This document shows, piece after piece, positions 13,460 through 34,385 of a DNA stretch of 64,000 bases (position 1 is the stretch's first letter; each line of letters opens with the position of its first letter). The position numbers were made by a program, and so were the translations under genes. The notes beneath the pieces were generated by a model. The model did not search any database. It was not told where the DNA came from and saw only the letters and a program-made list of their open reading frames with translations. Source of the stretch: Lachnospiraceae bacterium (GTDB lineage Bacteria > Bacillota > Clostridia > Lachnospirales > Lachnospiraceae); contig JAILAD010000005.1 in the NCBI GenBank assembly GCA_024681795.1, positions 23,926 to 87,925 on the forward strand, read 5' to 3'.

Positions 13460-14842
13460 GTGAAAAAAATTTTAATTGCCATAATGGCGGTATTTGTTAT
13501 AGCCATGATCGGAATCGTGGTTACGACAAATATTCTGGAAAGCAAAAACGGAATAGATGACGGTGTGTTTTCTTTTGAATCCATCAGGAATTCATTCAAA
13601 GTGGACAAAGAAACCATTAACGAACAGCGTAAGGCATTAAAGGGCGAAGATCCCGCAAGTGCTTTTCTTGCGGACATCGACACCACCTATGTGGAAGATG
13701 CCGAAAGCGGTGAAGGTACGGTATCGGAAGGGAAGGATACGGAGTTTTTTCATGCTTCGGTCCTGAACGAGAAGGATCTGCGCACACGGGAAAAATACGG
13801 CCTCACCAAAGAAAACATCGTGAAGGTCTGTGAGGAAAACCGCAGTAAATACTGTTATGAGACCATGGATGAGAGTCTTCATCAGCTTTATGCGGAAATC
13901 CTGATTGTAGTCAAGGAACGCGCCGAGGAAGTACCGCTTTGTACGAGGGAACCGGAGGAACTTGATTTTGCTTACCGGTGTGTATTAAACGATCATCCTG
14001 AAATTTACAGCATAAACGGTTATACCTGCGTACTGCATTCCGCCAATAAAGTTCCCGTAAAACTTGTATTTACGGCGAAATACATCATGTCGGAGCAGGA
14101 AGAAGCGGGCTTCCGGAGTAAGATTGACGAGTATGTGAAAGAATATAAAAGCGGTCTGAAAGAGGATGCTTCGGAATATCAGAAGGTAAGATACACATAC
14201 GAATATCTGATTGACAATACCGAATATGTGCTGGATTCCGAATACAACCAGAATATCTGTTCCGTAATGGCGTATCATAAATCCGTATGTCTCGGCTATG
14301 CGAAATCCATGCAGTATCTGCTAAACGAAGTCGGGGTAAAATCCACAATCGTCGAGGGAATTGCGGCAAGCGGAGAAGCGCACGCCTGGAACATGGTGCA
14401 GATCGGAGGGGCATTTTATTATACGGACGTAACTTGGGGAGATTCCTCCTACACGAACGGAAATTCCGTTGTAAAGGTGCTGTCCGGAATCAATTATGAT
14501 TTCTTAAATATCACGACGGAGGAACTGGAACATACACATACCATCGACAATGTGGTTCCGCTTCCGCAGTGTGTGGAAATTGCTGACAATTATTACGTAC
14601 GGGAAGGTCTCTATTTTGATTTTATCAATACGAATGCACTTTCCTGGGTATTTAAAAATGCCTACGAAAGAGACGATGATCATGTAACGGTAAAATGTGC
14701 AAACGACTCCGTTTTCCAGGAGATGAAATTTTATCTTCTTGAGGAACAGAACATTTTCGAGTATCTTCCGGAGGGTACGGATACTTTATCCTACGGGGAA
14801 AATCAAGAGATGCACACGCTTACGTTCATTTTGAAACACTGA
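13460..14842 (+). CDS. Secreted or membrane-anchored transglutaminase-like (Cys-His-Asp) domain protein
   Basis: N-terminal hydrophobic segment; SVCLGYA...HAWNMV...YYTDVTWGD triad. Confidence 0.85.
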   Translation: MKKILIAIMAVFVIAMIGIVVTTNILESKNGIDDGVFSFESIRNSFKVDKETINEQRKALKGEDPASAFLADIDTTYVEDAESGEGTVSEGKDTEFFHASVLNEKDLRTREKYGLTKENIVKVCEENRSKYCYETMDESLHQLYAEILIVVKERAEEVPLCTREPEELDFAYRCVLNDHPEIYSINGYTCVLHSANKVPVKLVFTAKYIMSEQEEAGFRSKIDEYVKEYKSGLKEDASEYQKVRYTYEYLIDNTEYVLDSEYNQNICSVMAYHKSVCLGYAKSMQYLLNEVGVKSTIVEGIAASGEAHAWNMVQIGGAFYYTDVTWGDSSYTNGNSVVKVLSGINYDFLNITTEELEHTHTIDNVVPLPQCVEIADNYYVREGLYFDFINTNALSWVFKNAYERDDDHVTVKCANDSVFQEMKFYLLEEQNIFEYLPEGTDTLSYGENQEMHTLTFILKH

Positions 14843-14984
14843 TTGAAACACGGACGGGAAAACACGGAAAAGGCAATTTGTTTCCTCACCGTGTTTTATG
14901 CAAAGAATGCATAAAAATCTATGCAAACAGCGCATAATTATGATATAATATAAAAGATTTTTAACGAAAGGGGAGGCAGAACTT

Positions 14985-15344
14985 ATGTCTAACAAAGTAA
15001 ATGAGAAAATCGGTTCCGTAAAAGTAGCGGATGATGTGGTACCCTGCATTGCAGCCCTTGCGGCAACGGAAGTTGACGGAGTTGTTTCCGTAGCAGAGAA
15101 CCTGACTGCAGAAATCATCAATCGTATGGGAATGCGGAAAGCCCCCAAAGGAGTAAAAGTAGAAATTAAAGGAAAGAAAGTTTACGTGGATATGGCACTC
15201 GGAATTGACTACGGATACAATGTTCCGGAAACCAGCCGCAAGGTTCAGGAAAAGGTAAAAGAGTCTATCGAAACCATGATGGGACTTGAGGTTGAGGACG
15301 TTAACATTCATATTGCCAGCGTAGTTCTTCCCGGAAACAAATAA
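14985..15344 (+). CDS. Asp23/Gls24 family protein
   Basis: [22 protein letters not shown]...[24 protein letters not shown]; precedes nusB. Confidence 0.93.
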
Positions 15345-15357
15345 AGCGGAAACAGAA

Positions 15358-15861
15358 ATGAGAAGAAGAATATGCAGGGAGCAGATTTTTATCCTGCTCT
15401 TTCAAACAGAATTTAATGACAGGGAAGAATACCCTTTTCTGATGGAACAGTTTCGTGAAAAAGAAGCGCTGACGGACGAGGAAAAGGATTATGTGGAGAA
15501 GAAATTCGATCTCATTATGAATAAACTCGGAGAAATCGACCGGGTGCTGAATGAAATCTCAACGGACTGGACCACCGGTCGAATGGGAAAGGTGGAACTG
15601 GCAATCTTAAGACTCGGATATTACGAAATGGCATTTGACGAAGATATTCCGGAATCCGTTGCGATTAATGAGGCAGTGGAACTTTCCAAGAAATACGGTA
15701 CGGACGAATCCTATTTGTTTATAAACGGAGTTTTGGGGAAATGTGCGGCAGATCAGGGCCGGCATAAGGAAGCTGCCCCGAGACCCGGTAAAGAGAAACC
15801 CTGGGCCGGGAAAAAACAGGGAACCGTAATCGTGAAGGGATCTTCGAAAAAGAAAGAATGA
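15358..15861 (+). CDS. nusB: Transcription antitermination factor NusB
   Basis: [11 protein letters not shown]...[14 protein letters not shown]...FINGVL. Confidence 0.95.
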
Positions 15862-17123
15862 CCGAATATTCCGTTGAACAAGTAAATAAATATATTTTAA
15901 GTATGTTCCGAGATGACTATCTGCTGCATGACATTTGTGTGCGCGGTGAAATCAGTAATTGTAAGTATCATTCTTCGGGACATATTTATTTTACCTTAAA
16001 AGATGCCGCATCCCAGTTATCCTGCGTCATGTTTGCATCTTATGCAAAGGGTCTTAATTTCCGTCTGGAAAACGATATGGAGGTGAAACTCCGCGGAAGT
16101 GTCGAGTGTTATTTAAGAGACGGGAAATACCAGCTTTATGTGAAGCAGGCGGTAAAGGGTGACAAAGGGGATCTGGCGAGACGTTTTGAGGAACTGAAAA
16201 AGCGTCTTCGTGACGAGGGACTGTTTGATGAAAGTATTAAGCAGCCGATTCCGAAAAATGCCAAAAGAGTGGGAATTGTTACTGCACCGACCGGTGCTGC
16301 GGTTCATGATATCATAACGGTTTCCAAAAGAAGAAATCCGTATATCGAACTGATTCTTTACCCCGCACTGGTTCAGGGAGAAGGTGCAAAGGAAAGCATC
16401 GCAAAGGGAATTACGGCGCTTGAACAAATCGGTGTCGATGTAATTATTGTCGGACGTGGCGGCGGATCCATGGAAGATTTGTGGGCGTTTAACGAAGAAC
16501 TTGTCGCACAGGCCATCTATAACTGTCCGATTCCGGTAATATCCGCGGTCGGACACGAAACGGATTTTACGATAGCGGATTTTGTGGCGGACCTTCGTGC
16601 CGCAACACCTTCCGCAGCGGCGGAACTTGCGGTCGGAGAAATCGGACCGGTTATTTCCGGTATTGCGGAATACCGGAACAGACTTGATTTTCAGATGAAC
16701 CGTGTGATTCGGGAAAGAAGACTGAAACTTGAAAAGTATTCCCGCATGGACGAGCGGATGATGCATATTCTGAAAGTCAGACGTCTTCAGACCGAACAGT
16801 ATCTGCACCGGGTGAAGGCGGCTTCTCCGAAAAACACGATTAACACAAAGAAAATGGAGAGCGTAAGACTTGAAGAGAAACTGTCGGCATCCATGGATGA
16901 AATCATCCGGAGCCGGAAGAACATGCTTGCTCTCTATATTGAGAGATTAAAAAGAGTATCCGTACTGGACAGGCTTCAGGGCGGACTCGGATATGTATCG
17001 GATCCGGACGGAAAACGTCTTACATCTGTAGGACAATTTGAAAAAGAAAAAGAATTCAGTCTGCGTTTAAAAGACGGAACGGTACTTGCAAAAACCGTGG
17101 ATGTCAGACCGGACTCAGTGTAA
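15858..17123 (+). CDS. xseA: Exodeoxyribonuclease VII large subunit
   Basis: GEISNCK...[45 protein letters not shown]. Confidence 0.97.
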
Positions 17124-17151
17124 AATACGGGAGATTACGGGAGGTATAATA

Positions 17152-17397
17152 ATGAGCAATACGGAAAATACAGAGAATGCAAATAATACAGAGAACGGTA
17201 CCCTGGAAGAGGATTTCAGGAAACTTGAAACCATTTTAAAAGAAATGGAAAAAGAGGATATCGGAATCGAGGATGCTTTCGCAAAATATGCGGAAGGAAT
17301 GCAGTTAATTAAATCCTGTAACGAAAGAATCGACCGTGTGGAGAAGAAAGTGTTAAAACTTTCCGATGATTTGAAACTGGAGGATTTTGACGAATGA
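17152..17397 (+). CDS. xseB: Exodeoxyribonuclease VII small subunit
   Basis: LEEDFRKLETILKEME...Y.EGMQLIKSC; start after GGAGGT. Confidence 0.93.
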   Translation: MSNTENTENANNTENGTLEEDFRKLETILKEMEKEDIGIEDAFAKYAEGMQLIKSCNERIDRVEKKVLKLSDDLKLEDFDE

Positions 17398-18299
17398 ATG
17401 CAGAAAAAATGAATGAACTTGCGGGCTTTGCCGAAAGAATGATTCTGCCGTATTTTCCGAAAGAAGAAGGTATGCAGAAGAGAATTTTCGAAGCCATGAA
17501 TTACAGTTTTGAAGCAGGCGGAAAAAGAATCCGTCCGATTCTCATGATGGAGAGCTTTAAAATGCTCGGAGGGGACGAAAACGACATCGATCATTTTGCA
17601 CCCTTTATGGCCGCCCTTGAAATGATTCATACCTATTCCCTGATTCATGACGATCTTCCGGCTGTGGACAATGATGATTTCAGACGCGGAAAACCGACCA
17701 ATCACAAGGTATTCGGAGAGACGACGGCGATTTTTGCCGGAGACGCAATGTGTAATTATGCCTATGAAGTCATGATAGAAGACATTTTAAAAGAGCCGGA
17801 TTCCATCTGGAAAAATAAAAAAATCGAAGCCATGAATGTTCTTGCAAGAAAAGCCGGTGCAAACGGAATGCTTGCCGGACAGATGGTCGACTATCTCTGC
17901 GAGCAGAAGACGGACACATCTCTGGAAGAGCTGATGTTTATCCACGAAAAGAAGACGGCTGCCCTGATCCAGGCACCTCTTGTCATGGGAGCGATTTTTG
18001 CCGGTGCAAATCGTGAAAAAATTGCCAGAATGGAGCAGGTCGGTTATTTAATCGGCATTTCCTTCCAGATTCAGGATGATATTCTGGACTGCATCGGAAG
18101 TGAAGAAAAAATGGGCAAGAAGACCGGGTCGGATGCAAAGAACGAGAAGACCACCTATGTGACCATCAAGGGATTAAAGCAGGCACAGGAGGATCAGGTA
18201 AGAATGTCGAAAGAGGCAGAAGGACTGCTTGTTTCGATGGCCGACAGCGAGTCGAATTTAAGGGATATTGTGGAGTATCTGATTCACAGGGAATATTAA
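17394..18299 (+). CDS. ispA: Polyprenyl (farnesyl) diphosphate synthase
   Basis: GGKRIRP, HTYSLIHDDLPAVDNDDFRRGKPT, FQIQDDILD. Confidence 0.95.
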   Translation: MNAEKMNELAGFAERMILPYFPKEEGMQKRIFEAMNYSFEAGGKRIRPILMMESFKMLGGDENDIDHFAPFMAALEMIHTYSLIHDDLPAVDNDDFRRGKPTNHKVFGETTAIFAGDAMCNYAYEVMIEDILKEPDSIWKNKKIEAMNVLARKAGANGMLAGQMVDYLCEQKTDTSLEELMFIHEKKTAALIQAPLVMGAIFAGANREKIARMEQVGYLIGISFQIQDDILDCIGSEEKMGKKTGSDAKNEKTTYVTIKGLKQAQEDQVRMSKEAEGLLVSMADSESNLRDIVEYLIHREY

Positions 18300-18365
18300 A
18301 TCGAGGTCCGGTCCGGCTAAACGGGAAAACGGGACAACAAAGAAAATACGGGAGAGTGGACTTCC

Positions 18366-20225
18366 ATGTATCTTGAAAAAATAAAAAAAGCAAATGATAT
18401 CAAAAAAATTCCGGCATACGCATATGACCAGCTGGCAGAGGAAATCCGTCAGTTTCTGATTGAAAGCATTTCGGAAACCGGAGGACATCTTGCAGCAAAT
18501 TTAGGCGCCGTGGAACTGACCATGGCACTTCATCTGGTGCTTGATTTTCCGGAGGATAAACTGATTTTTGACGTCGGACACCAGTCCTATACACATAAAA
18601 TACTGACCGGAAGAAAAGACCGTTTCGGCACACTCCGGAAATACGAAGGACTTGCGGGATTTCCGAAAACCAACGAAAGCGATTGCGATGCATTTGACAC
18701 GGGGCATTCTTCCACCTCAATTTCCGCGGGTCTCGGTATGGCAACGGCAAGAACCCTTCAGGGAAAAAAGAACACCGTCATTTCCGTAATCGGTGACGGG
18801 GCGCTTACCGGCGGAATGGCTTACGAGGCTTTAAACAATGCCGCCAAAGCGGAAACTCCGTTTATCATTGTTTTAAACGATAACAATATGTCCATCTCCG
18901 AGAACGTCGGAGGAGTATCTTCCTACCTGAACCAGATCAGGACTACGGAAGCGTACCTCGAATTAAAAGAGGATGTAAAAAATAAATTAAAGACCGTTCC
19001 CAAAGGAAAAAATATGATTCACAAAATCCAGAGTGTGAAGAGCGGTTTTAAACAGCTGATGATTCCCGGAATGTATTTTGAAGATATGGGAATCACCTAT
19101 CTCGGACCGGTGAACGGGCACGATATTCCTGCAATCGTGAAGGTATTAAAAGAAGCCAAGCGGTGTAAAACACCGGTGCTGGTTCATGTTCTGACTCACA
19201 AAGGAAAAGGATATCTTCCTGCGGAACGTCACCCGGCGAGATTCCACGGAACGGAGCCTTTTGACATCGAGACAGGATTGCCGAAAAACAAAAAAACCTC
19301 CCCGAATTACACGGATATTTTTTCCACTGTCATGTGCAAAATGGGAGAGAGTAATCCGGATGTGGTTGCAATCACTGCTGCCATGCCGGACGGTACGGGA
19401 TTAAAGAGATTTCGGAACATGTATCCGGATAGATTCTTTGATGTTGGAATTGCGGAACAGCATGCCGTAACTTTTGCGGCCGGCCTTGCCGCAAGCGGAA
19501 TCCGGCCGGTAGTTGCGATTTATTCCTCTTTCCTGCAGCGTGCATATGACCAGATTTTACATGATGTCTGCATCCAGAAACTCCCTGTTGTTTTTGCAAT
19601 TGACAGAGCAGGGCTTGTCGGAAGTGACGGGGAAACCCATCAGGGAATTTTTGATTTGTCGTATCTTTCCGAAATTCCGAACATGACCGTAATGGCGCCG
19701 AAAAACAAGTGGGAACTTGCCGATATGCTTCGCTACAGCGTGGTATTTGACGGCCCGGTTGCAGTCCGTTATCCGAGAGGCCGTGCATACGAAGGCCTCA
19801 GTGAAAACCGTGCGGACATTGAATACGGCAAGGCGGAATGGATTTACGAAGGAAAGGATGTCTGTCTGGTTGCAGTCGGAAGTATGGTCCGGATTGCGGT
19901 TGATGTGAAGGAAGCGCTGGAAAAAGAAGGATTAACGGTCAGCCTCGTAAATGCGAGATTCGTAAAACCCATTGACGAGGAAATGCTGACGACCGCCATG
20001 AAGAAACATAAGATTGTCGTAACGATGGAGGAAAATATTCTTTCCGGCGGATACGGGGAAAATGTAAGACAGTTTACGGATACGCTGAAAAGCAAAGCGA
20101 AACTTATTAATATAGCAATTCCCGATACCTTCGTGGAACACGGAAGCGTGGATCTGCTGCTGAAGGCCATGAATATGGATGCAGAGGGAATCACAAAAAG
20201 AATTCTTGAGAGTATTCCAAAATGA
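18366..20225 (+). CDS. dxs: 1-deoxy-D-xylulose-5-phosphate synthase
   Basis: DVGHQSYTHK, GHSSTS, IGDGAL.GGMA, DVGIAEQHAV, DGETHQG. Confidence 0.98.
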   Translation: MYLEKIKKANDIKKIPAYAYDQLAEEIRQFLIESISETGGHLAANLGAVELTMALHLVLDFPEDKLIFDVGHQSYTHKILTGRKDRFGTLRKYEGLAGFPKTNESDCDAFDTGHSSTSISAGLGMATARTLQGKKNTVISVIGDGALTGGMAYEALNNAAKAETPFIIVLNDNNMSISENVGGVSSYLNQIRTTEAYLELKEDVKNKLKTVPKGKNMIHKIQSVKSGFKQLMIPGMYFEDMGITYLGPVNGHDIPAIVKVLKEAKRCKTPVLVHVLTHKGKGYLPAERHPARFHGTEPFDIETGLPKNKKTSPNYTDIFSTVMCKMGESNPDVVAITAAMPDGTGLKRFRNMYPDRFFDVGIAEQHAVTFAAGLAASGIRPVVAIYSSFLQRAYDQILHDVCIQKLPVVFAIDRAGLVGSDGETHQGIFDLSYLSEIPNMTVMAPKNKWELADMLRYSVVFDGPVAVRYPRGRAYEGLSENRADIEYGKAEWIYEGKDVCLVAVGSMVRIAVDVKEALEKEGLTVSLVNARFVKPIDEEMLTTAMKKHKIVVTMEENILSGGYGENVRQFTDTLKSKAKLINIAIPDTFVEHGSVDLLLKAMNMDAEGITKRILESIPK

Positions 20226-21043
20226 AAAACAGACTGGATGTAATACTTGTAAACAGAAATCTCGCTCCTTCGAGGGAGAAGGCAAAGGCCTTTATCATGT
20301 CCGGAATCGTCTATGTGAACGGCCAGAAAGAAGACAAGGCCGGGGATTTGTTTGATGAGGAAACCGCAAAAATAGAAGTGCGGGGCGAGACCTTGAAATA
20401 TGTCAGCCGCGGCGGCCTGAAACTGGAGAAAGCCCTTCAGGTTTTTCCGATTGATTTAAACGGAAAAATCTGTATGGATATCGGGGCATCCACGGGAGGC
20501 TTTACCGACTGTATGCTGCAAAACGGAGCCGTTAAGGTATATGCGGTTGATGTCGGACACGGACAGCTTGCCTGGTCTTTGAGAAACGACGAAAGAGTTG
20601 TCAACATGGAACGGACGAACTTTCGTTACATGCAGCCGGAAGACATTGAAGAAAAATCTGATTTTGCATCCGTGGATGTTGCTTTTATTTCCTTAACGAA
20701 AATTCTTCCGCCGGCATACGCCTTGTTAAAAGACGACGCCGAAATGGTTTGTCTGATTAAGCCCCAGTTTGAAACAACCCGTGAAAAAGTCGGAAAAAAA
20801 GGTGTGGTAAGGGATGCAAAAGTGCATGAGGAAGTGATTCTTTCCGTGTTGGAATTCGCCACGGCAAATGATTTTGCGGTTCTCGGACTGACATATTCCC
20901 CGATTCGCGGACCCGAAGGAAATATCGAGTATCTGGCGCATCTTAAAAAGGGGATTTCGGAGAACGAAGGAATTCCCGACGCATCATTTAAAGAACTTGC
21001 AAAAGAAACCGTTTTACAGTCTCACGGAGCATTGGAACATTAG
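20222..21043 (+). CDS. tlyA: TlyA-family rRNA methyltransferase
   Basis: S4 domain; YVSRGGLKL, DIGASTGGFTDC, LIKPQFE. Confidence 0.95.
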   Translation: MKNRLDVILVNRNLAPSREKAKAFIMSGIVYVNGQKEDKAGDLFDEETAKIEVRGETLKYVSRGGLKLEKALQVFPIDLNGKICMDIGASTGGFTDCMLQNGAVKVYAVDVGHGQLAWSLRNDERVVNMERTNFRYMQPEDIEEKSDFASVDVAFISLTKILPPAYALLKDDAEMVCLIKPQFETTREKVGKKGVVRDAKVHEEVILSVLEFATANDFAVLGLTYSPIRGPEGNIEYLAHLKKGISENEGIPDASFKELAKETVLQSHGALEH

Positions 21044-21054
21044 AGGAAAACCTT

Positions 21055-21906
21055 ATGAAGAAAATTCTTGTAATCACGAACCGGTACAAAGATTCGGAAA
21101 TGTTCATTACGGAAAAAGTCTGCACACACTTAAAAGACGGTGGGGCAGAGGTCATTCAGACGACGGTTGACCGCAAGATGAATACATTAAATGATGCTTT
21201 ACTGGGAGATGTGGATTGTGCCGTTATTTTAGGCGGTGACGGAACGATTATGCAGTTTGCAAACCAGCTTTCCTTAGCGGATATCCCGATTCTCGGAATC
21301 AATATGGGGCATGTCGGATATCTGGCGGAAGTTGATTCAAACCACGTCGAAGAAGCCATCGGACGGTTACTGAGCGGAGACTACAAGGTACAGAAGCGCA
21401 TGATGATTACCGGAAGCCTGAAGAAAAAAGGGAAAACGGTATTTACCGATACTGCGGTAAACGATGTTGTCATTACCAGAAACGGAAGACTGCAGGTGAT
21501 TCATTTTAATATCTATGTCAACGGAAATCTCTTAAAAAATTACACGGCGGACGGTGTGATTCTCTCGACACCCACGGGTTCCACCGCATACAATCTTTCC
21601 GCGGGAGGACCGATTGTAGATCCCGGCGCGGAGATTCTGATTGTGACTCCGATTTCCCCACATACCCTGATGAACAGAAGCCTTGTTTTAAACGCGACGG
21701 ACAATGTTGAAATTGAAGTACTTCCGACGCATGAAGAGGAAGAATACGAGGAAATGATGGAAGTTGATTTTGACGGAAAAGAATACGGAAAACTGTTTCC
21801 GGGTGACCGTGTCGGTGTGACGGGTGCGGACTGTCATGTGAAAATGATCTGTATGAACGAAGTCAGCTTTATGGAAACGCTTCATCGCAAAATGAAGGAA
21901 AGTTAA
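21055..21906 (+). CDS. nadK: NAD+ kinase
   Basis: GGDGT, GINMGHVGYL, NDVV, DGVILSTPTGSTAYNLSAGGP. Confidence 0.96.
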   Translation: MKKILVITNRYKDSEMFITEKVCTHLKDGGAEVIQTTVDRKMNTLNDALLGDVDCAVILGGDGTIMQFANQLSLADIPILGINMGHVGYLAEVDSNHVEEAIGRLLSGDYKVQKRMMITGSLKKKGKTVFTDTAVNDVVITRNGRLQVIHFNIYVNGNLLKNYTADGVILSTPTGSTAYNLSAGGPIVDPGAEILIVTPISPHTLMNRSLVLNATDNVEIEVLPTHEEEEYEEMMEVDFDGKEYGKLFPGDRVGVTGADCHVKMICMNEVSFMETLHRKMKES

Positions 21907-21908
21907 GT

Positions 21909-22355
21909 ATGAAACAGAAAAGACAGCTCAGAATCATTGAAATCATCAACCACAGTGCCGTCGGGACACAGGAAGAACTTGCGTTAAAACTTCGCGAAGA
22001 GGGCTTTGAAGTGACGCAGGCAACGGTATCGAGAGATATCAGGGAACTGAATTTATCGAAAGTTCCCGCTGCAAACGGGCGCCAGAAATATGCGATTCTT
22101 TCCGGTACGGGACAGTTAAACGACAAGTATGTCCGAATGATGCATGACGGATTAATCAGCATGGAACCCGCAGGAAATCTGCTGGTTTTGAAAACCGTAT
22201 CCGGTATGGCAATGGCGGTTGCGGCTGCGGTGGATGCCATGCATTTTCCGGAAATTGTGGGAAGCATTGCGGGCGACGATACCATTATGGCAGCAACGAA
22301 ATCTTTGTCGGATGCAGTAAATCTGAAGAATAAAATAAACGATTTGATTCATTAA
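21909..22355 (+). CDS. argR: Arginine repressor
   Basis: TQEEL...VTQATVSRDI.EL...GSIAGDDT. Confidence 0.97.
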   Translation: MKQKRQLRIIEIINHSAVGTQEELALKLREEGFEVTQATVSRDIRELNLSKVPAANGRQKYAILSGTGQLNDKYVRMMHDGLISMEPAGNLLVLKTVSGMAMAVAAAVDAMHFPEIVGSIAGDDTIMAATKSLSDAVNLKNKINDLIH

Positions 22356-22412
22356 TGTTTCAAACGCAGAATGCGGAGTGAGCGAGAATCCCCGGATCTG
22401 CAAGGAGGAAAC

Positions 22413-24110
22413 ATGTTACTTTATTTACACGCAAAAAATTACGCTCTGATTGATGACGTGGAAGTCGAATTTACCGACGGACTCAATATCATGACGGGAG
22501 AGACGGGTGCCGGTAAATCGGTCCTTTTGGGAAGCATTTCACAGGCACTCGGCTCCAAATCGAAAACCGATGTCATAAGGGAAGGCGAAGAATCCGCTTT
22601 TGTGGAACTGCATTTCGGAATCGACAATGATTTTCAGAGAAACCTTTTAAACGAACTTGATATCGATGCGGAAGACGATGTTGTTATTATTCAGAGAAAA
22701 ATTACAAAGCAGCGGTCCGTCGGAAAAATCTGCGGTATTACGGTAAGCAGTGCGGACCTTCACAGGATTGCCGACAGTTTTCTGGATATCTACGGTCAGC
22801 ATGATTATCAGAACCTTTTGAAGGAATCCATGCATATTGAGATTCTGGACGGGTTTGCAGGCTCCGGATTAAAGGATTTAAAGGAGCAGGTTTCTGCGGA
22901 ATATTCCCGTTATGCAGAACTTAAAAAAGAGGCGGATTCTTTGGAAGAGGACGATGACAAGCGGCTTCGGGACATGGAGTTTCTGAAATTCCAGCTCGAT
23001 GAAATCAAGGCTGCAAACGTAAAAGAAGGCGAAGAAGAGGAATTAAAAGATTATCTTCGTCTTGCCGAGAACGGGGAACGAATCGCAAAGGCACTTTCGG
23101 GTGCGGAGATGTCACTTTCCGAAGAAGACGGAGTATTGAGACATTTTACGACGGCATTCCGTGAACTATCGACGGTTTCCGGCCTGACGGATGAAATCGG
23201 CGGGTTTGAAGAAAGCCTTAAGCAGGCGCAGGATATTGTACAGGATACGTTAAGACAGATGTCGGATTATCTGGAATCCCTTGATTTTGACGAAAAAACC
23301 TTAAGGGAATCCAGAGAGCGTTATGACGAAATCAACAGCCTGTTCATGAAATACGGTAAAAATTACGAAGGCATGATGCGTTATGCGGAAGAAAAAACAA
23401 AAGAGTACGAGCATCTTCTTTCTTTTGAAAGTTACCGCGATGAGCTGTTTGAAAAACTCCGCGTCTCCGAAAAGAATCTTTCTGCCCTTTGCGGAAAATT
23501 ATCGGAACTTCGTAAAGAAGAAGGCGTGAAGTTTGCGACGGAAGTAAGCAAAGCTTTATCGGATCTTAATTTTAACGATAACCGTTTTGAAGTGCGCTTT
23601 GAAAGAAATGAAAAATATACGGCAAAAGGATTTGACGTTGCGAGATTTTTTATCTCCACCAATGTGGGAGAACAGATGCGTCCTTTATGCGATGTTGCAA
23701 GCGGCGGAGAACTGTCCAGAATCATGCTTGCCATCAAGACGGTATCGGCATCGAGAGAACTGGTGCACACTCTGATTTTTGATGAGATTGATGCGGGAAT
23801 CAGCGGAAATACCGCGTGGAAGGTTTCCGAAAAGCTGGGACTTCTCGGCAGGGATTTACAGGTAATCTGTATCACGCATCTTCCCCAGATTGCCGCTATG
23901 GCGGATACCCATTTTGAAATTGTCAAGACCGAAAAAGACGGACATACCGCGACAGAGGTAAAGAAACTCTTCCAGTATGAGTCCGTGGAGGAACTGACGA
24001 GGCTTTTGGGAGGCGGAGAGAAGAAGGAAGCCGCTTCCGAGAATGCGAAGGAATTAATCCGACAGGCAAAGGATATTAAGAAACGCTATCAAAGCGGAAA
24101 GTCCGAATAA
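22413..24110 (+). CDS. recN: DNA repair protein RecN
   Basis: TGETGAGKS Walker A, ASGGELSR, IFDEID.G, ITHLPQIAA; start after AGGAGG. Confidence 0.97.
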   Translation: MLLYLHAKNYALIDDVEVEFTDGLNIMTGETGAGKSVLLGSISQALGSKSKTDVIREGEESAFVELHFGIDNDFQRNLLNELDIDAEDDVVIIQRKITKQRSVGKICGITVSSADLHRIADSFLDIYGQHDYQNLLKESMHIEILDGFAGSGLKDLKEQVSAEYSRYAELKKEADSLEEDDDKRLRDMEFLKFQLDEIKAANVKEGEEEELKDYLRLAENGERIAKALSGAEMSLSEEDGVLRHFTTAFRELSTVSGLTDEIGGFEESLKQAQDIVQDTLRQMSDYLESLDFDEKTLRESRERYDEINSLFMKYGKNYEGMMRYAEEKTKEYEHLLSFESYRDELFEKLRVSEKNLSALCGKLSELRKEEGVKFATEVSKALSDLNFNDNRFEVRFERNEKYTAKGFDVARFFISTNVGEQMRPLCDVASGGELSRIMLAIKTVSASRELVHTLIFDEIDAGISGNTAWKVSEKLGLLGRDLQVICITHLPQIAAMADTHFEIVKTEKDGHTATEVKKLFQYESVEELTRLLGGGEKKEAASENAKELIRQAKDIKKRYQSGKSE

Positions 24111-24243: not shown

Positions 24244-25689
24244 ATGAAAAATATCTTATTTGTTGCATCGGAAAGTGTACCTTTTATCAAGACGGGAGGA
24301 CTTGCAGACGTTGTAGGTTCGCTTCCGAAATGTGTAAACAAGAAATACTTTGATGTAAGGGTTATGATTCCGAAATATACCTGCATCTCCCAGGAATGGA
24401 GAGATAAGATGGTATTTAAGACCAGCTTCTACATGGATTTTCACTGGAGAAGCGAGTATGTGGGAATTCTTGAAGCGAAAGTGGACGGGGTGACCTATTA
24501 CTTTATTGATAACGAGTCTATGTTCGGCGGCTTCCGCCCGTACTCCGGAAATGTTCTGGATGATATGGAGAAGTTCATTTTCTTCAGCAAGGCTGCATTG
24601 TCCGCAATGCCTCTTCTGGACTTCCGTCCCGACATCATCCACTGTCATGACTGGCAGACCGGTCTTGTTCCGGTATATTTGAAAGAGCGTTTTCAGGGGA
24701 ATGAATTTTTCCATGGAATTAAGACGATTATGACCATCCACAACCTGAAATTCCAGGGCAAGTGGGATGTTAAGACCGTAAAGGATATTTCCGGACTTCC
24801 GGATTTTTATTTCACACCGGACAAACTGGAGCATTACAAGAATGCCAACATGTTAAAGGGTGGTCTGGTTTATGCGGATGCCATTACAACCGTTTCCGAA
24901 ACTTATGCACAGGAAATAATGACACCGTTCTACGGCGAGAGTCTGGACGGCCTTCTCCGTGCGAGAGAGCATGATCTTCGAGGTATCGTAAACGGTATCG
25001 ATTATACGGATTACGATCCTTCCAAAGATCCGCATATTGATTACCCGTATACACCGCAGAACTTCCGTAAGGAAAAAATCAAAAATAAACGTGCCCTTCA
25101 GAAAGAACTCGGTCTGGAAGAGAACGACAAGCTTATGATGATCGGTATTGTATCGAGATTAACCGATCAGAAGGGCTTTGACTTAATCGCATACATGATG
25201 GATGAACTTTGTCAGGATGCCGTTCAGATTGTGGTACTTGGTACGGGTGATGAGCAGTATGAGAATATGTTCCGTCACTTTGACTGGAAGTATAACAATA
25301 AAGTATCTGCAAATATCTACTATTCGGAAGCATTATCCCATAAGATTTATGCAGCATCGGATGCATTCTTAATGCCGTCCTTATTTGAACCCTGCGGATT
25401 ATCCCAGTTAATGTCCTTACGTTACGGAACACTTCCGATTGTACGTGAAACGGGAGGTCTTAAGGATACTGTAGAACCTTACAATGAATACGAGAGTACC
25501 GGTACGGGCTTCAGTTTTGTAAACTACAACGCACACGAAATGCTCGCAAGCATCCGTTATGCCGAGAAGATTTACTATGACCGTAAACGTGAATGGAACA
25601 AGATGGTTGACCGCGCTATGGCAGTTGACTTCTCCTGGGATGTCTCCGCAAAGAAATACCAGGAAATGTACGACTGGCTGATAGGCTGA
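24244..25689 (+). CDS. glgA: Glycogen synthase
   Basis: KTGGLADV, HCHDWQ, TIHNL, SRLTDQKG, PSLFEPCGLSQL. Confidence 0.98.
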   Translation: MKNILFVASESVPFIKTGGLADVVGSLPKCVNKKYFDVRVMIPKYTCISQEWRDKMVFKTSFYMDFHWRSEYVGILEAKVDGVTYYFIDNESMFGGFRPYSGNVLDDMEKFIFFSKAALSAMPLLDFRPDIIHCHDWQTGLVPVYLKERFQGNEFFHGIKTIMTIHNLKFQGKWDVKTVKDISGLPDFYFTPDKLEHYKNANMLKGGLVYADAITTVSETYAQEIMTPFYGESLDGLLRAREHDLRGIVNGIDYTDYDPSKDPHIDYPYTPQNFRKEKIKNKRALQKELGLEENDKLMMIGIVSRLTDQKGFDLIAYMMDELCQDAVQIVVLGTGDEQYENMFRHFDWKYNNKVSANIYYSEALSHKIYAASDAFLMPSLFEPCGLSQLMSLRYGTLPIVRETGGLKDTVEPYNEYESTGTGFSFVNYNAHEMLASIRYAEKIYYDRKREWNKMVDRAMAVDFSWDVSAKKYQEMYDWLIG

Positions 25690-25709: not shown

Positions 25710-25749
25710 AAAGAACATCCTGCATGCTTGCATGCAAGGATGTTCTTTT
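25710..25749 (+). terminator. glgA terminator
   Basis: aaagaacatcctgcatgc-tt-gcatgcaaggatgttctttt. Confidence 0.8.
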
Positions 25750-25857
25750 AGATTTTTTTGGTTGGTGCGAAGCAACAACCCGAAAAAAGACGCGAAGCGA
25801 CTTATGAGGGCTCCCTGACTCAGCCGTAGTCCAAAGATTTTTTGATTGGTGCGAAGC
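25750..25857. repeat. Imperfect 23-24 bp direct repeat pair with GCGAAGC mini-hairpins
   Basis: agatttttttggttggtgcgaagc (25750-25773) and agattttttgattggtgcgaagc (25835-25857); third GCGAAGC at 25792-25798. Confidence 0.75.
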
Positions 25858-25946
25858 TTTTCTTTGCTTGTTGGACATCTGTTGGACGCTCCATACTATA
25901 ATTCACTCAAATACTGTAAATAACTGTATTTAGCGAGGACAAAATT

Positions 25947-28900
25947 ATGGCACTTTATCAGGACATGGAAAAATTAATCGAAGAAAGACAGAATGCTTTA
26001 AAGAATTATCAGGGAGATGAATTTTTCGAAAAATACGCCGAACTGATGTATATGAAGCGTTCTTTTCGTAAGGATTTTGCCTGGTATGACGTGGAATCCC
26101 TGGTGGACGCCAGACAAAAATATGAGCGCTTTAAATCCGGTGCTTTTCATTTTGCTGCTAATTATATTATAACTTTTAAAAGACGTCTGGAATTATTCTA
26201 TAAAAAGACAAATATGCCGACTACGGAGCTTCTTCCCGATATTACGCTCGCAGAAGACGGAAAAGAAGTGCAGGAAGAGGAACAACTGCGTTATTTTATT
26301 GAGGAAAAAGATCTGGATGATGAGAATGCAAAGAAGTTCCGCAATAAACTTTTTGAAAAAGGTTATCCGGTCACTGTACTTCCCACAATTGATGACACTT
26401 CTTTCCACGGCAGATCTTTTGCCGAGCATATCAGACGTACAAATAACGATTTTCCGATGACTCCGGACGCACTTTTTCTGATACTTACGGAAAAAACAAC
26501 CTCCGATATTGAAGCACTTGGCGGAGAAGTTAATCCGCTTAATGACATTCGGATTAACGGACTTTCCATCGAGGAAGCATGGGGAAAGAAATACGAAAAT
26601 ATTGAAGATCCGGAACAGAAAAAAACGCAGATGAAAGCAGATCTTTTGAATGCCATTCTGCACGGATCCGAAGAAATCAGTCTGGTCCGTAAAGTAGCAA
26701 AAAAGAATGAAAAAGGTGAAATACAGTTTTCGGAAAGCGGAAGAGTGGTTTTGGTTCAGAGCCGTAAGAATCTGGAAAAAACCAGAAACTTTCTGCAGGA
26801 AGTGGATAAATTCCACCAGGTATACACACAGCATGCACCTTTTCTTTCCGAGCCCGGAGTCGCACCATATCCGAGTTCCCAAAAATATCTTAACGAAATG
26901 AGGCTTGCAGGTGAAAAACTTGCAGTAAAATCCGATCTTGACAATAATGCAACCTCTTCCTACGAGGATTTCAAGAATGCATACAATGAATATGTCCTTA
27001 ACGTAAAGGCATTTTTATCCTATCAGCTGATGGAAATGCAGATGACGAAGGAAAATTACGAACGTTCCCTCCGTCAGGGGCAGAACCTGAATGCCGCACA
27101 AAAAGATGCGCTTAAGAATGACATAAAATCCACCGCCGATAAAATGAAAGCTCTGCAAAGTCGTTTTGAAGAGCATCTTGCTGTGCTTGAAAGCAGTTTT
27201 AACCGCGTTGATGCGCGCTCAAAAGGAATTTCCGTTACAACTGCGGATGATCCCTGGAAGAGGAAAAAGGATTTTACATTTTTGAATCTGATGAATGCAC
27301 ACCGCCAGAGTGCAATGCTCCGGGGCTTAGATCCGGATGTAATGGACATTCAGGCAAAAACCACGCTTCCTCAGGACCATGCCTGGGTGAATGACCTTGG
27401 AACCCTTACTCCGCTTAATGAAAACCAGCGCCGTCAGATTCTGGAAAATTCGCCCATTAATTTTAAGTCTCCGGTCAGGGTAAGCAACGGTGAAAGCATT
27501 GTCACCATGACCGATGAAAACGGCACGAGCGCTGATTCTCTTTTGCGTGACAGAGGATTTGTGCCCAGAATGGATACGTTCCAGTCACTTTTCTGCATAT
27601 GGGCAATGGCAGAAAAGAATCTGTCCCTGAAAGAAGCATCGAGACTTTACAAAGCCCATATTCCCATCGGACAGGGTCCGAAAGGAGAAAATATCTATCC
27701 CGAAAATCATGAAACCGTAAAGCAGTATGAAAAAGAATTTCTGGATTTCTGTAAAAGAAATCCGTTCGCGGCAGGAGATGATATCTTAAGAGAGGAAGTG
27801 CAGCGGGATGTAAACGGTCCGCTCCGTCCGAATAATGACCCGGATGTTCAGCAGTTATTTAAAGAAAAAATGGAAAAATCCATCCGCAACTGGATGAATG
27901 TTTTTCAAAAAGGCAGTCAGATTGCAAATCAGTATACCATCCCGGATATCGATTTTTCGGATCCCGAACAGGTAAGACCGTATGCGGATGAGTTTAACCT
28001 GATCCGCGGAATCGGCGTGGACGGAAAACAGGAATCCGACAGAATGCTGGAAAATGAAGGTAATACGAAATATTTCGATGCAATCCGCGTTGCCGGAGAT
28101 GCCATCGGAGAAAAAAATTATTATATCATGTATCAGAATTTCTTCCATATGATGAACCTGATGGATGTGGTATATAATAAACCGTATTGCAATGAGGGCC
28201 CGGGTATTCCGAAGAATGCACTCGCAGCCGGGGAAGTCGCATTTTATAAGGAAAATGCAGGTCAGGTTATGAGTGATTTCAAAGGGAAAACACTCGGAGA
28301 TGTTCTGACCAATCATGCCGGAACCATTTCTGCATACAATATTACATTTACACTCGAATTCCAGAAAAAATTTATCATGAATGCAGGTCCGGGCAATAAT
28401 TTTAACGTACAGCCCGCAGAACCCGGAGGAGATGTAACAGCGGACCTGCCCGTGAAAGACGGCGTTGCCTATCTGCTTCATCAAAACAAAAATGTATATG
28501 CCTCCTTTGTGGAAAAAGAACGGAAAGAAATGGTAAAAAGATCCGCCAAGAAGGATCTGCATAACGACATCAGCGTAAACATGCTGGAAGCAAGAGGAGT
28601 ACCGATGAGTGCGGCGCTTAGAAACGAACTTACCAATCTTGGCAGCGCAGCTTCCATGCAGGATTTTTTGTTTAATAAATTTGAAGGGGAATTAACCGGA
28701 AAGGACGTTATTGCAAAATGTTTCAGGAAGATGGTTCCCCGTAATTTCCACGGAGATTTCCTAAAGGAAGGAATCCGTAACAGCGACTTTTTCCTGATTA
28801 ACGATGTTAAACCCTCCGAACTCTGGGGAAAGAAATACGAGGGCATTCAGAATGAGGATCAGAGAGAATGGCTGTACCGTACGGAAATCATGAAGGCCAT

Positions 28901-34385: not shown

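Follow-up and report, generated by a model that had tools for sequence, protein, structure and literature searches.

The subject of this analysis is a giant open reading frame (ORF), found between glgA and rqcH in a 64,000-nucleotide (nt) stretch of DNA from a Lachnospiraceae bacterium (contig JAILAD010000005.1 of assembly GCA_024681795.1, positions 23,926-87,925; hereafter, the window). The host is an uncultured rumen Lachnospiraceae with a genome of 2.75 Mb, and all of the genomes compared here are metagenome-assembled genomes (MAGs). Promoter, gene-content and distribution data give roughly even chances that the 2812-residue product of this ORF is an exported substrate of a putatively co-regulated type IV secretion system (T4SS). 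The wider reading, which we hold at a little below even chances, is that a vertically inherited, non-conjugative Gram-positive T4SS exports or injects a set of co-regulated, module-shuffling, fold-novel helical proteins of 1000-5000 residues, this one included. The gene and its putative control elements are as follows.

25947..34385, forward strand: giant ORF (P0001), 2812 amino acids, from the ORF call
25869..25887, forward strand: direct repeat TGTTGGAC-ATC-TGTTGGAC with an 11-bp period, a putative OmpR/SARP-type activator site
25897..25902, forward strand: -10 box TATAAT, 9 nt past the second repeat copy, in the same layout as at other motif sites
25935..25939, forward strand: ribosome-binding site GAGGA, 7 nt 5′ of the ATG

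The direct repeat sits 78 nt upstream of the giant's ATG. A scan of the host genome for TGTTGGAC-N3-TGTTGGAC, allowing at most one mismatch, returned 14 sites, compared with none in five shuffled controls. The genes 3′ of these sites encode the window giant, the second of two tandem giants on contig C12 (2939 residues), a giant on contig C56 (2423 residues), five further proteins that lack a Sec signal (1010, 688, 1114, 723, and 820 residues), a lipoprotein, two membrane proteins, and a 191-residue protein; the large motif-bearing proteins besides the giants are encoded on contigs C61, C44, C70, C54, and C67. The motif was also found upstream of family members in five other genomes (loci L009, L027, L028, L021, L022, and L007), and is conserved 5′ of both giants at L009. 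Profile (hhalign) and BLAST comparisons place most of the large regulon proteins in one mosaic superfamily; the window giant itself contains two copies of a ~900-residue unit (see below). The C12 giants (C12:5200-14121 and 14268-23087, forward strand, locus L109; 2973 and 2939 residues, 29% mutually identical, with the motif at the second) end in ...AGLHM or ...AGPHM, have no Pfam match, and match the first half of the unit with their first ~440 residues (hhalign probability 92-95%). The second half of the unit is matched by the C-terminus of the motif-bearing C56 giant (C56:25380-32651, reverse strand, locus L110; residues 1945-2337, 98.4%) and by the C61 protein (99.2%). A module of family member P0143 recurs in the C44 and C70 proteins, and a module of the C12 giants recurs in the C54 protein. 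As a separate observation, the C56 giant carries PI3/PI4-kinase-type catalytic motifs (ICANPDRHTGN ... GIDNDNSYG) at residues ~1500-1560; it has no Pfam match of its own, its homologues P0193, P0192, and P0194 match PF00454 (E 4e-6 to 6e-4), and its homologue P0198 has an ABC1 kinase-like domain (E 7e-12).

A candidate regulator was found next to the motif in two genomes. In genome G005, a protein with Response_reg and Trans_reg_C domains, the latter match being weak (E 1e-4, below the cut-off), is encoded directly 5′ of two motif sites and a giant. Its closest homologue in the host is the 191-residue winged-helix protein (C67:200941-201516), with 65% identity over the DNA-binding half; this gene heads a cluster on contig C67 and ends 22 nt before a motif site. 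Activators of the OmpR/SARP type bind direct repeats of 11-bp period that stop 8-9 nt short of the -10 box, and the layout described here, with its 11-bp period, 8-9 nt to the -10 box, and a regulator gene beside its target, fits a regulon of this type. By analogy, we infer that the motif is the binding site of a winged-helix activator of the OmpR/SARP type.

Two of the motif sites bracket the cluster on C67, which by its gene content is a chromosomal type IV secretion system.

C67:180803-201516, reverse strand: chromosomal T4SS cluster (locus L111)
C67:189195-193031: VirB4, 1278 amino acids, with ~500 extra N-terminal residues (PDB 4ag5, E 1.9e-44)
C67:196522-198549: VirD4/TrwB-type coupling protein, 675 amino acids, with two transmembrane (TM) helices (TrwB, E 7e-5)

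The gene order begins with the winged-helix regulator, a VirB2-like 152-residue protein containing a run of 13 Asn residues, an unknown of 538 residues, the VirD4-like protein, and a 328-residue protein, and continues with a five-TM protein, a two-TM protein, VirB4, a STAS-like 103-residue protein, a 1895-residue protein with a signal peptide, and lipoproteins. The genes downstream of the regulator include one for a small protein that has a signal peptide and two TM helices. The second motif site drives an unannotated 820-residue protein, which is followed by rplS, and the cluster as a whole is flanked by an ABC transporter and rplS. To our knowledge, what is understood of type IV secretion in Gram-positive bacteria concerns conjugation almost exclusively, and a literature search found no effector-type T4SS described in Lachnospiraceae. 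The VirB4 orthologues of G036 and of G021/G005 are 89% and 68-77% identical to that of the host, compared with about 88% and 63-70% for RqcH; VirB4 is thus diverging in step with housekeeping genes, which points to vertical descent rather than to a mobile element.

The same comparison bears on whether the giants might instead be carried into recipient cells together with DNA during conjugation, like the polyvalent proteins of conjugative elements and phages. VirB4, VirD4, and VirB6-like genes form the core of Firmicutes conjugation systems, and giant multi-module proteins are reportedly typical of conjugative elements and phages. Nevertheless, such transfer is very unlikely, given that VirB4 keeps pace with RqcH, that the C67 cluster lies between an ABC transporter and rplS, and that the giants occupy housekeeping sites (glgA/rqcH here; alaS, hisS, and ppdK elsewhere). 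In addition, tblastn searches found no relatives of the giants among 50,697 phage and 72,556 plasmid records, and none were found in IMG/VR; a phage, plasmid, or viral origin was likewise rejected.

The distribution of the giants follows that of the secretion genes. Giants were found in 9 of the 41 genomes sampled from the genus (G000, G003, G005, G013, G021, G026, G034, G036, and G462). VirB4 orthologues (63-89% identity) are present in all of these apart from G034, with fragments in G015, so that both are found in 8 genomes, the family only in 1, VirB4 only in 1, and neither in 31 (one-sided Fisher test, shared ancestry ignored, p = 8e-7). Predictions drawn from this association were borne out by additional genomes. 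G462, which was found solely by its VirB4, has giants, and G460, G461, and G463 have neither; outside the genus, G110 and G269, which belong to the only two other genera with family members, carry a VirB4 orthologue (71% and 63% identity), while five control genera do not. On a single contig of G005, VirB4 (46-49 kb), the regulator (64 kb), and four giants (66-95 kb) lie within ~50 kb.

The large regulon proteins also share a signature at their extreme C-termini. Among the last residues of family members, Gly or Pro at positions -3/-4 is enriched 5-6 fold, Met at -3/-4 is enriched 4 fold, and His at -2 is enriched 9 fold, with Lys at -1 also enriched. A loose tail motif describes 45% of the members, compared with 13% of internal controls. 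The signature (Gly/Pro-x-Met/Leu-Gly/His) was seen in 8 of the 9 large Sec-less regulon proteins, including some with unrelated C-terminal regions, and the regulon ends read ...PAGPAMGGPK, ...HHPAGPHM, ...PQPAGLHM, ...GHGMGGMS, ...RNPVMGR, ...KDGPKL, ...SRKPPM, and ...KPKGKGF. The Sec-dependent and membrane members of the regulon lack it.

The giant itself could be divided into the following parts.

25947..27506, forward strand: N-terminal region, residues 1-520, with a four-helix bundle (1-90), a disordered stretch, and a degenerate half unit (~200-425)
27507..30266, forward strand: unit 1, residues 521-1440, from the alignment with orthologues and an AlphaFold model
30339..30374, forward strand: EF-hand calcium loop DANHDGIIQPEE, residues 1465-1476, in the linker joining the two units
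30519..33146, forward strand: unit 2, residues 1525-2400, from BLAST, alignment, and profile
33147..34016, forward strand: acidic tail, residues 2401-2690, of low complexity and with a length that varies between alleles; 30% Asp plus Glu, net charge -52
34017..34382, forward strand: conserved C-terminal domain (residues ~2691-2790) and Gly/Pro-rich end ...PAGPAMGGPK, a candidate recognition signal

The two units are recognizable as an internal repeat (residues ~521-1440 versus ~1525-2400; BLAST E down to 2e-18), which aligns with the orthologues over ~900 columns, and a shorter piece, residues 203-276, matches residues 951-1020 and 1929-1975. The half unit in the N-terminal region was also detected by the unit profile, positions 404-486 of which match residues 211-294; in the orthologue at L028, residues 8-371 match profile positions 214-583. 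The C-terminal domain of ~100 residues is kept across allele types A-D, and is also present in P0008 and P0013. The EF-hand loop (D1465-A-N-H-D-G-I-I-Q-P-E-E1476) is canonical and invariant in four orthologues, the invariant positions being D1465, N1467, D1469, G1470, I1472, and E1476. Its database matches are weak (EF-hand_5 of Pfam at residues 1464-1481, E 0.0033, sub-threshold; myosin light chains, E ~0.01, the sole weak match in the PDB profile search), and the giant contains only this one loop, with no second loop found that could complete a pair.

A confident AlphaFold2 model of unit 1, based on a 47-sequence alignment, is nearly all helical (pLDDT 79.9, pTM 0.67), and contains one long beta hairpin following a conserved I-D-G-K-T-P-x-E-L-W-G-x-K-Y segment. 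The model of the N-terminal region has a pLDDT of 65 overall, and of 80-90 for residues 200-425. Foldseek found no fold match at E ≤ 1e-3 in PDB for either model, nor in BFVD for the unit model; neighbors below significance were generic helical scaffolds (nucleoporins, vinculin, talin, and BAR domains). Nor did the giant give any significant match to Pfam, NCBIfam, PADLOC, PHROGs, or PDB sequences. The best-conserved columns among 134 aligned units hold Trp, Tyr, Phe, Gly, and Pro, together with Q695, K963, E980, N1058, and R1126, and form no catalytic-looking pattern; the P-loop, metalloprotease, and kinase motifs Walker A, HExxH, DFG, and DRHxxN are all absent from the giant. The highest mean Kyte-Doolittle hydropathy over 19 residues is only 1.1, and the giant is thus taken to have neither a TM helix nor a signal peptide; an LPxTG motif was not found in it, and Pfam revealed no WXG or LXG domain and no wall-binding module. 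The giant is a non-enzymatic, almost all-helical modular protein whose strongly acidic tail is disordered. A first-pass annotation, made from the letters of the window alone, had already described a 2812-residue ORF between glgA and rqcH with host-like codon usage, lacking a signal peptide, TM helix, LPxTG, or recognizable catalytic motif, and had predicted it to be largely helical and modular, with internal repeats, an EF-hand, and an acidic tail. All of these features were confirmed, the codon usage by a relative synonymous codon usage correlation of 0.90 with nine neighboring genes and by a GC content at third codon positions of 0.445, compared with 0.481 in the neighbors. The domain-wise AlphaFold and Foldseek check that it had proposed is represented by the two models described above.

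A helical, non-enzymatic protein of this kind might instead act inside the producing cell, as a co-regulated cytoplasmic scaffold or adaptor that, for example, organizes or gates the secretion machine, or belongs to the same programme without being exported. We regard this as unlikely, although it is a live rival among the roles that the first-pass annotation had put forward. The complete lack of export signals in the family (0 of 150 relatives), the lack of catalytic motifs, and the mostly aromatic, Gly, or hydrophobic character of the conserved columns are all compatible with a scaffold, as are the pTM of the unit model, which suggests a compact helical body, and the non-significant fold neighbors, all of which are scaffolds. 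However, a recognition signal accounts better for an end signature that recurs across otherwise unrelated regulon proteins, and an EF-hand has, as is generally known, little to sense at cytoplasmic calcium levels. Moreover, the either/or gene types, the copy number of 0-8, and the ten-fold raised dN/dS (see below) would be unexpected for a housekeeping-type scaffold.

If the giant is exported, the T4SS is the route best supported among those considered. The first-pass annotation had suggested a secreted effector using a non-Sec route, which is now the most strongly supported of its three roles, and had proposed a check for type VII and type IV secretion genes, which proved informative: the C67 VirB4/VirD4 cluster co-occurs with the giants and WXG100 genes do not. 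Export by a type VII secretion system (T7SS) was rejected, since WXG100 genes are absent from the giant-bearing genomes G021, G036, and G003, and present in the giant-less genomes G023 and G012. T7SS LXG/WXG substrates resemble the giants in being Sec-less, helical Gram-positive proteins of polymorphic character, but differ in the WXG or LXG domain, which the giant lacks. The host genome does have nine WXG100 genes beside a 1548-residue ORF (C27:22158-28245, reverse strand), an arrangement that indicates a T7SS locus, and a similar array is present in G005; across the genus, the distribution of WXG100 does not follow the giant family. Flagellar type III export was also rejected (no flagellin in G000, G003, G005, G021, G026, and G036). 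Flagellin was found in 26 of the 41 genomes of the genus, and in none of the six species with multi-unit giants, which may be only a clade effect. A role as a spore coat or exosporium protein was rejected as well, Spo0A_C being absent from all of the giant-bearing genomes tested.

Export need not mean action inside a target cell, and the giants might be structural or adhesive components that pass through the T4SS to form surface fibers holding partner cells. All of the evidence linking the giants to the T4SS applies equally to this possibility, and the long, modular repeat architecture, the EF-hand loop, the surface-like rate of change, and the lack of flagella in giant-carrying species agree with it. 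It is nonetheless considered quite unlikely, since the known Gram-positive T4SS adhesins, as a matter of general knowledge, have Sec signals and LPXTG motifs, the C67 cluster already encodes a signal-peptide protein of 1895 residues, and the giant has no wall-binding module.

The first-pass annotation had called the giant an orphan, which proved incorrect, and had placed it in an uncharacterized giant-protein family, which was upheld. Four full-length relatives turned up when 5.8 billion proteins were searched by word index. With a profile of six unit copies, HMMER returned 192 representative clusters at E ≤ 1e-3 and 85 at E ≤ 1e-30 from 1.84 billion representatives, with lengths of 150-4981 residues; among the best 150 of the 192 members, 59 have one near-complete unit and 17 have two. 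All of the named members are annotated as 'hypothetical protein [Lachnospiraceae bacterium]'. Pfam searches with six paralogues, 46 single-unit relatives, the two C12 giants, the C56 giant, and the 4981-residue relative found nothing, and no convincing signal peptide, TM helix, or LPXTG motif was seen in 150 family representatives. The survey of paralogues and taxonomic spread, another of the proposed checks, showed that the family is confined to a few uncultured ruminant Lachnospiraceae genera: the nearest genomes are the uncultured ruminant MAGs RUG13462, RUG12880, UBA3804, and RGIG6068, and beyond the genus of the host only the two genera mentioned above, among 400 Lachnospiraceae genera sampled, have members. 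The number of matches per genome ranges from 0 to 8, and copies are often in tandem. The neighbors of the G005 and G021 paralogues (alaS, a CAP-domain protein, a hydrogenase, and unknowns of 299, 793, 572, and 1221 residues) are not family members and include no conserved partner. Many of the members among P0009-P0035 have Asn/Gln/Gly-rich low-complexity N-termini (MDGNQLN..., MPGGNNNQQ..., and MPVKTGSNNGNNGNN...), and most other N-termini in the family start with MPK.. or MKE...

The family evolves quickly. Between two strains of one sister species, the ratio of nonsynonymous to synonymous substitution rates (dN/dS) is 0.32 (2688 codons) and 0.36 (2182 codons) for the giants, compared with 0.016-0.14 for flanking genes, which indicates purifying selection that is relaxed or diversified about ten-fold. 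The family is rapidly evolving and lineage-restricted, and has no detectable relative among known families or folds.

The turnover is most evident at the glgA-rqcH site, whose remaining features are as follows.

24244..25689, forward strand: glgA (glycogen synthase), left flank of the insertion site (Pfam Glyco_transf_5, E 2e-85)
25715..25745, forward strand: terminator-like hairpin 3′ of glgA, the palindrome CCTGCATGCTTGCATGCAAGG followed by a T-run, also kept in L009
34412..36250, forward strand: rqcH, right flank (Pfam NFACT_N, E 1.5e-144)

The terminator-like hairpin after glgA indicates that the giant gene has its own promoter. In the spacer between glgA and the giant (window positions 25745-25860), two copies of GATTTTTTKRTTGGTGCGAAGC lie ~86 nt apart, and the second copy falls in a 26-nt stretch that is missing from L009. 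glgA directly adjoins rqcH, with no giant, in G021 (UBA3804; 187 nt apart) and in G033 (48 nt apart), and the giant can thus be regarded as an insertion into a conserved block, while two tandem giants occupy the site in RUG13462 (L009) and at L028. Locus L027 belongs to the same species as the window; ten flanking proteins are 98.6-100% identical. The DNA of the two is 98.4% identical up to position 26023 and 98.9% identical from position 34412 on; between these points only short patches of 73-82% identity were found, and the two giants share 35.6% protein identity. In the identity matrix, the window type groups with the first gene of the tandem pair (43%) and the L027 type groups with the second (47-50%). 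The left breakpoint lies 26 codons into the ORF, where the paralogues are still ~80% identical at the DNA level. The simplest reading of these alignments is that an ancestral tandem pair existed, of which strains may have kept different members, each apparently evolving about ten times faster than its neighbors.

GlgA at this site is 99% identical between the host and species in which RecN and NadK are at 84-88%. Recombination carrying the locus was considered on this account and dropped, since even G021, with RecN at 68%, has a GlgA that is 97% identical, and the dS of GlgA is ordinary (dN/dS 0.016); GlgA is therefore simply a very constrained gene. In a sister species, at L028:4266-8148, recN and glgA are separated by an insertion that encodes a 990-residue protein with TIR and NPHP3_N (STAND NTPase) domains and a NUDIX protein, and this defense-like insertion one gene from the L028 giants indicates that the neighborhood is a variable spot.

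A stand-alone role in anti-phage defense or conflict, the third of the roles first put forward, would make the shared motif and the co-occurrence side effects of common ancestry. The TIR-STAND and NUDIX insertion, together with the patchy distribution, the tandem paralogues, and the fast change of the giants, might be read in its favor. The proposal gained nothing from the searches, however: the best of the PADLOC defense models was Cas2 (E 0.017, 13.6 bits, i.e., noise), and no NTPase, nuclease, or other effector motif was recognized. Furthermore, the co-occurrence holds in three genera and in the prediction test, and the promoter motif is common to the T4SS cluster. Only a slight probability is therefore left to it.

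Taken as an exported T4SS substrate, the giant would belong to the following scheme. When the winged-helix activator encoded at the head of the C67 cluster is switched on, it would drive about a dozen dispersed genes through the motif, such that the cell makes the T4SS and the giant set together. The coupling protein would recognize the C-terminal domain or the tail, and the giant, as an easily unfolded helical protein, would then be exported or translocated, would bind calcium once outside the cytoplasm of the producer, and would have its site of action at the cell surface or within a target cell. The roughly ten-fold raised dN/dS, the either/or paralogue types, and the 0-8 copies per genome amount to an arms-race signature, which fits an effector-like or contact role.

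Several points weigh against the export of the giant. A substrate of 300 kDa, with relatives of up to 4981 residues, is far larger than the T4SS substrates known to us, and no immunity-like or chaperone gene was found beside the giant. The C67 system could be a conjugation machine; relaxase genes were not searched for. The assignment of the regulator to the motif is based on gene position and on how members of this regulator family are known to bind, and the C-terminal signature is degenerate. The co-occurrence of giants and T4SS is partly a clade effect, and the two discordant genomes, G034 and G015, are incomplete MAGs (84% and 69% complete). Lastly, rqcH starts 26 nt past the stop codon of the giant, with no terminator seen in the gap, which could hint at a cytoplasmic link.

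Several known systems resemble the proposed one in part. The Dot/Icm effector sets of Legionella and Coxiella are reportedly under the control of the PmrA response regulator. The likeness extends to scattered genes whose products lack a Sec signal, a tandem direct repeat immediately 5′ of the -10 box, a fast turnover of the repertoire, and the shuffling of modules; it would also include binding of the repeat by an OmpR-family regulator, production alongside a type IV apparatus, and a loose signal at the extreme C-terminus. The present host, in contrast, is a non-pathogenic, Gram-positive commensal of the rumen whose T4SS is of a minimal Firmicutes type, and the giants are far larger (up to 4981 residues), consist of one family of helical units, and have no eukaryote-like domains. 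The X-T4SS of Xanthomonas is said to deliver bacteria-killing effectors (X-Tfe) with a C-terminal XVIPCD domain. As in the giants, a conserved domain of ~100-120 residues lies at the C-terminus behind variable N-terminal parts, and X-Tfes depend on the VirD4 coupling protein; however, they have wall-degrading or lipase domains and adjacent immunity genes, neither of which the giant has, and there is no sequence similarity.

The machine itself is closest in content to the Gram-positive conjugative T4SSs (pCF10 Prg/Pcf, ICEBs1 Con, and pCW3 Tcp), with which it shares VirB4, a VirD4-type protein, a polytopic VirB6-like protein, small two-TM proteins, and a large surface protein with a signal peptide. 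In contrast to these, the C67 cluster lies between chromosomal housekeeping genes, diverges at the pace of the species, and is tied by the motif to the giant set. The regulatory layout resembles that of the Streptomyces SARP activators, such as ActII-ORF4, DnrI, and AfsR, in that direct repeats with an 11-bp period stop ~8 nt short of the -10 box and take the place of the -35 box, and in that the regulator heads its cluster. It differs in the 8-mer repeat TGTTGGAC, in the regulators (the G005 protein has a receiver domain, while that of the host is a short protein of 191 residues), and in the targets, which are dispersed protein genes rather than a biosynthetic cluster.

Two of the results stand on sequence evidence even if export should prove wrong, namely, the regulon and the occurrence, at a single chromosomal site, of alternative, hyper-divergent gene types; TGTTGGAC-N3-TGTTGGAC also provides a simple DNA motif for finding further members of the set. 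If the giants are T4SS substrates, a function would be given to 192 clusters that lack a Pfam, PDB, or fold match, which is a sizeable unannotated block, and in the 2.75-Mb host genome the repertoire would comprise four giants of 2423-2973 residues and at least four further large proteins. The system would correspond, in Gram-positive bacteria, to the Dot/Icm or X-T4SS effector systems, its substrates would be the largest known for any T4SS, and it would raise the question of how a protein of at least 300 kDa passes through a T4SS. It would also mean that abundant rumen bacteria use a T4SS for protein delivery with a fast-evolving repertoire, which would bear on competition or attachment among gut commensals.

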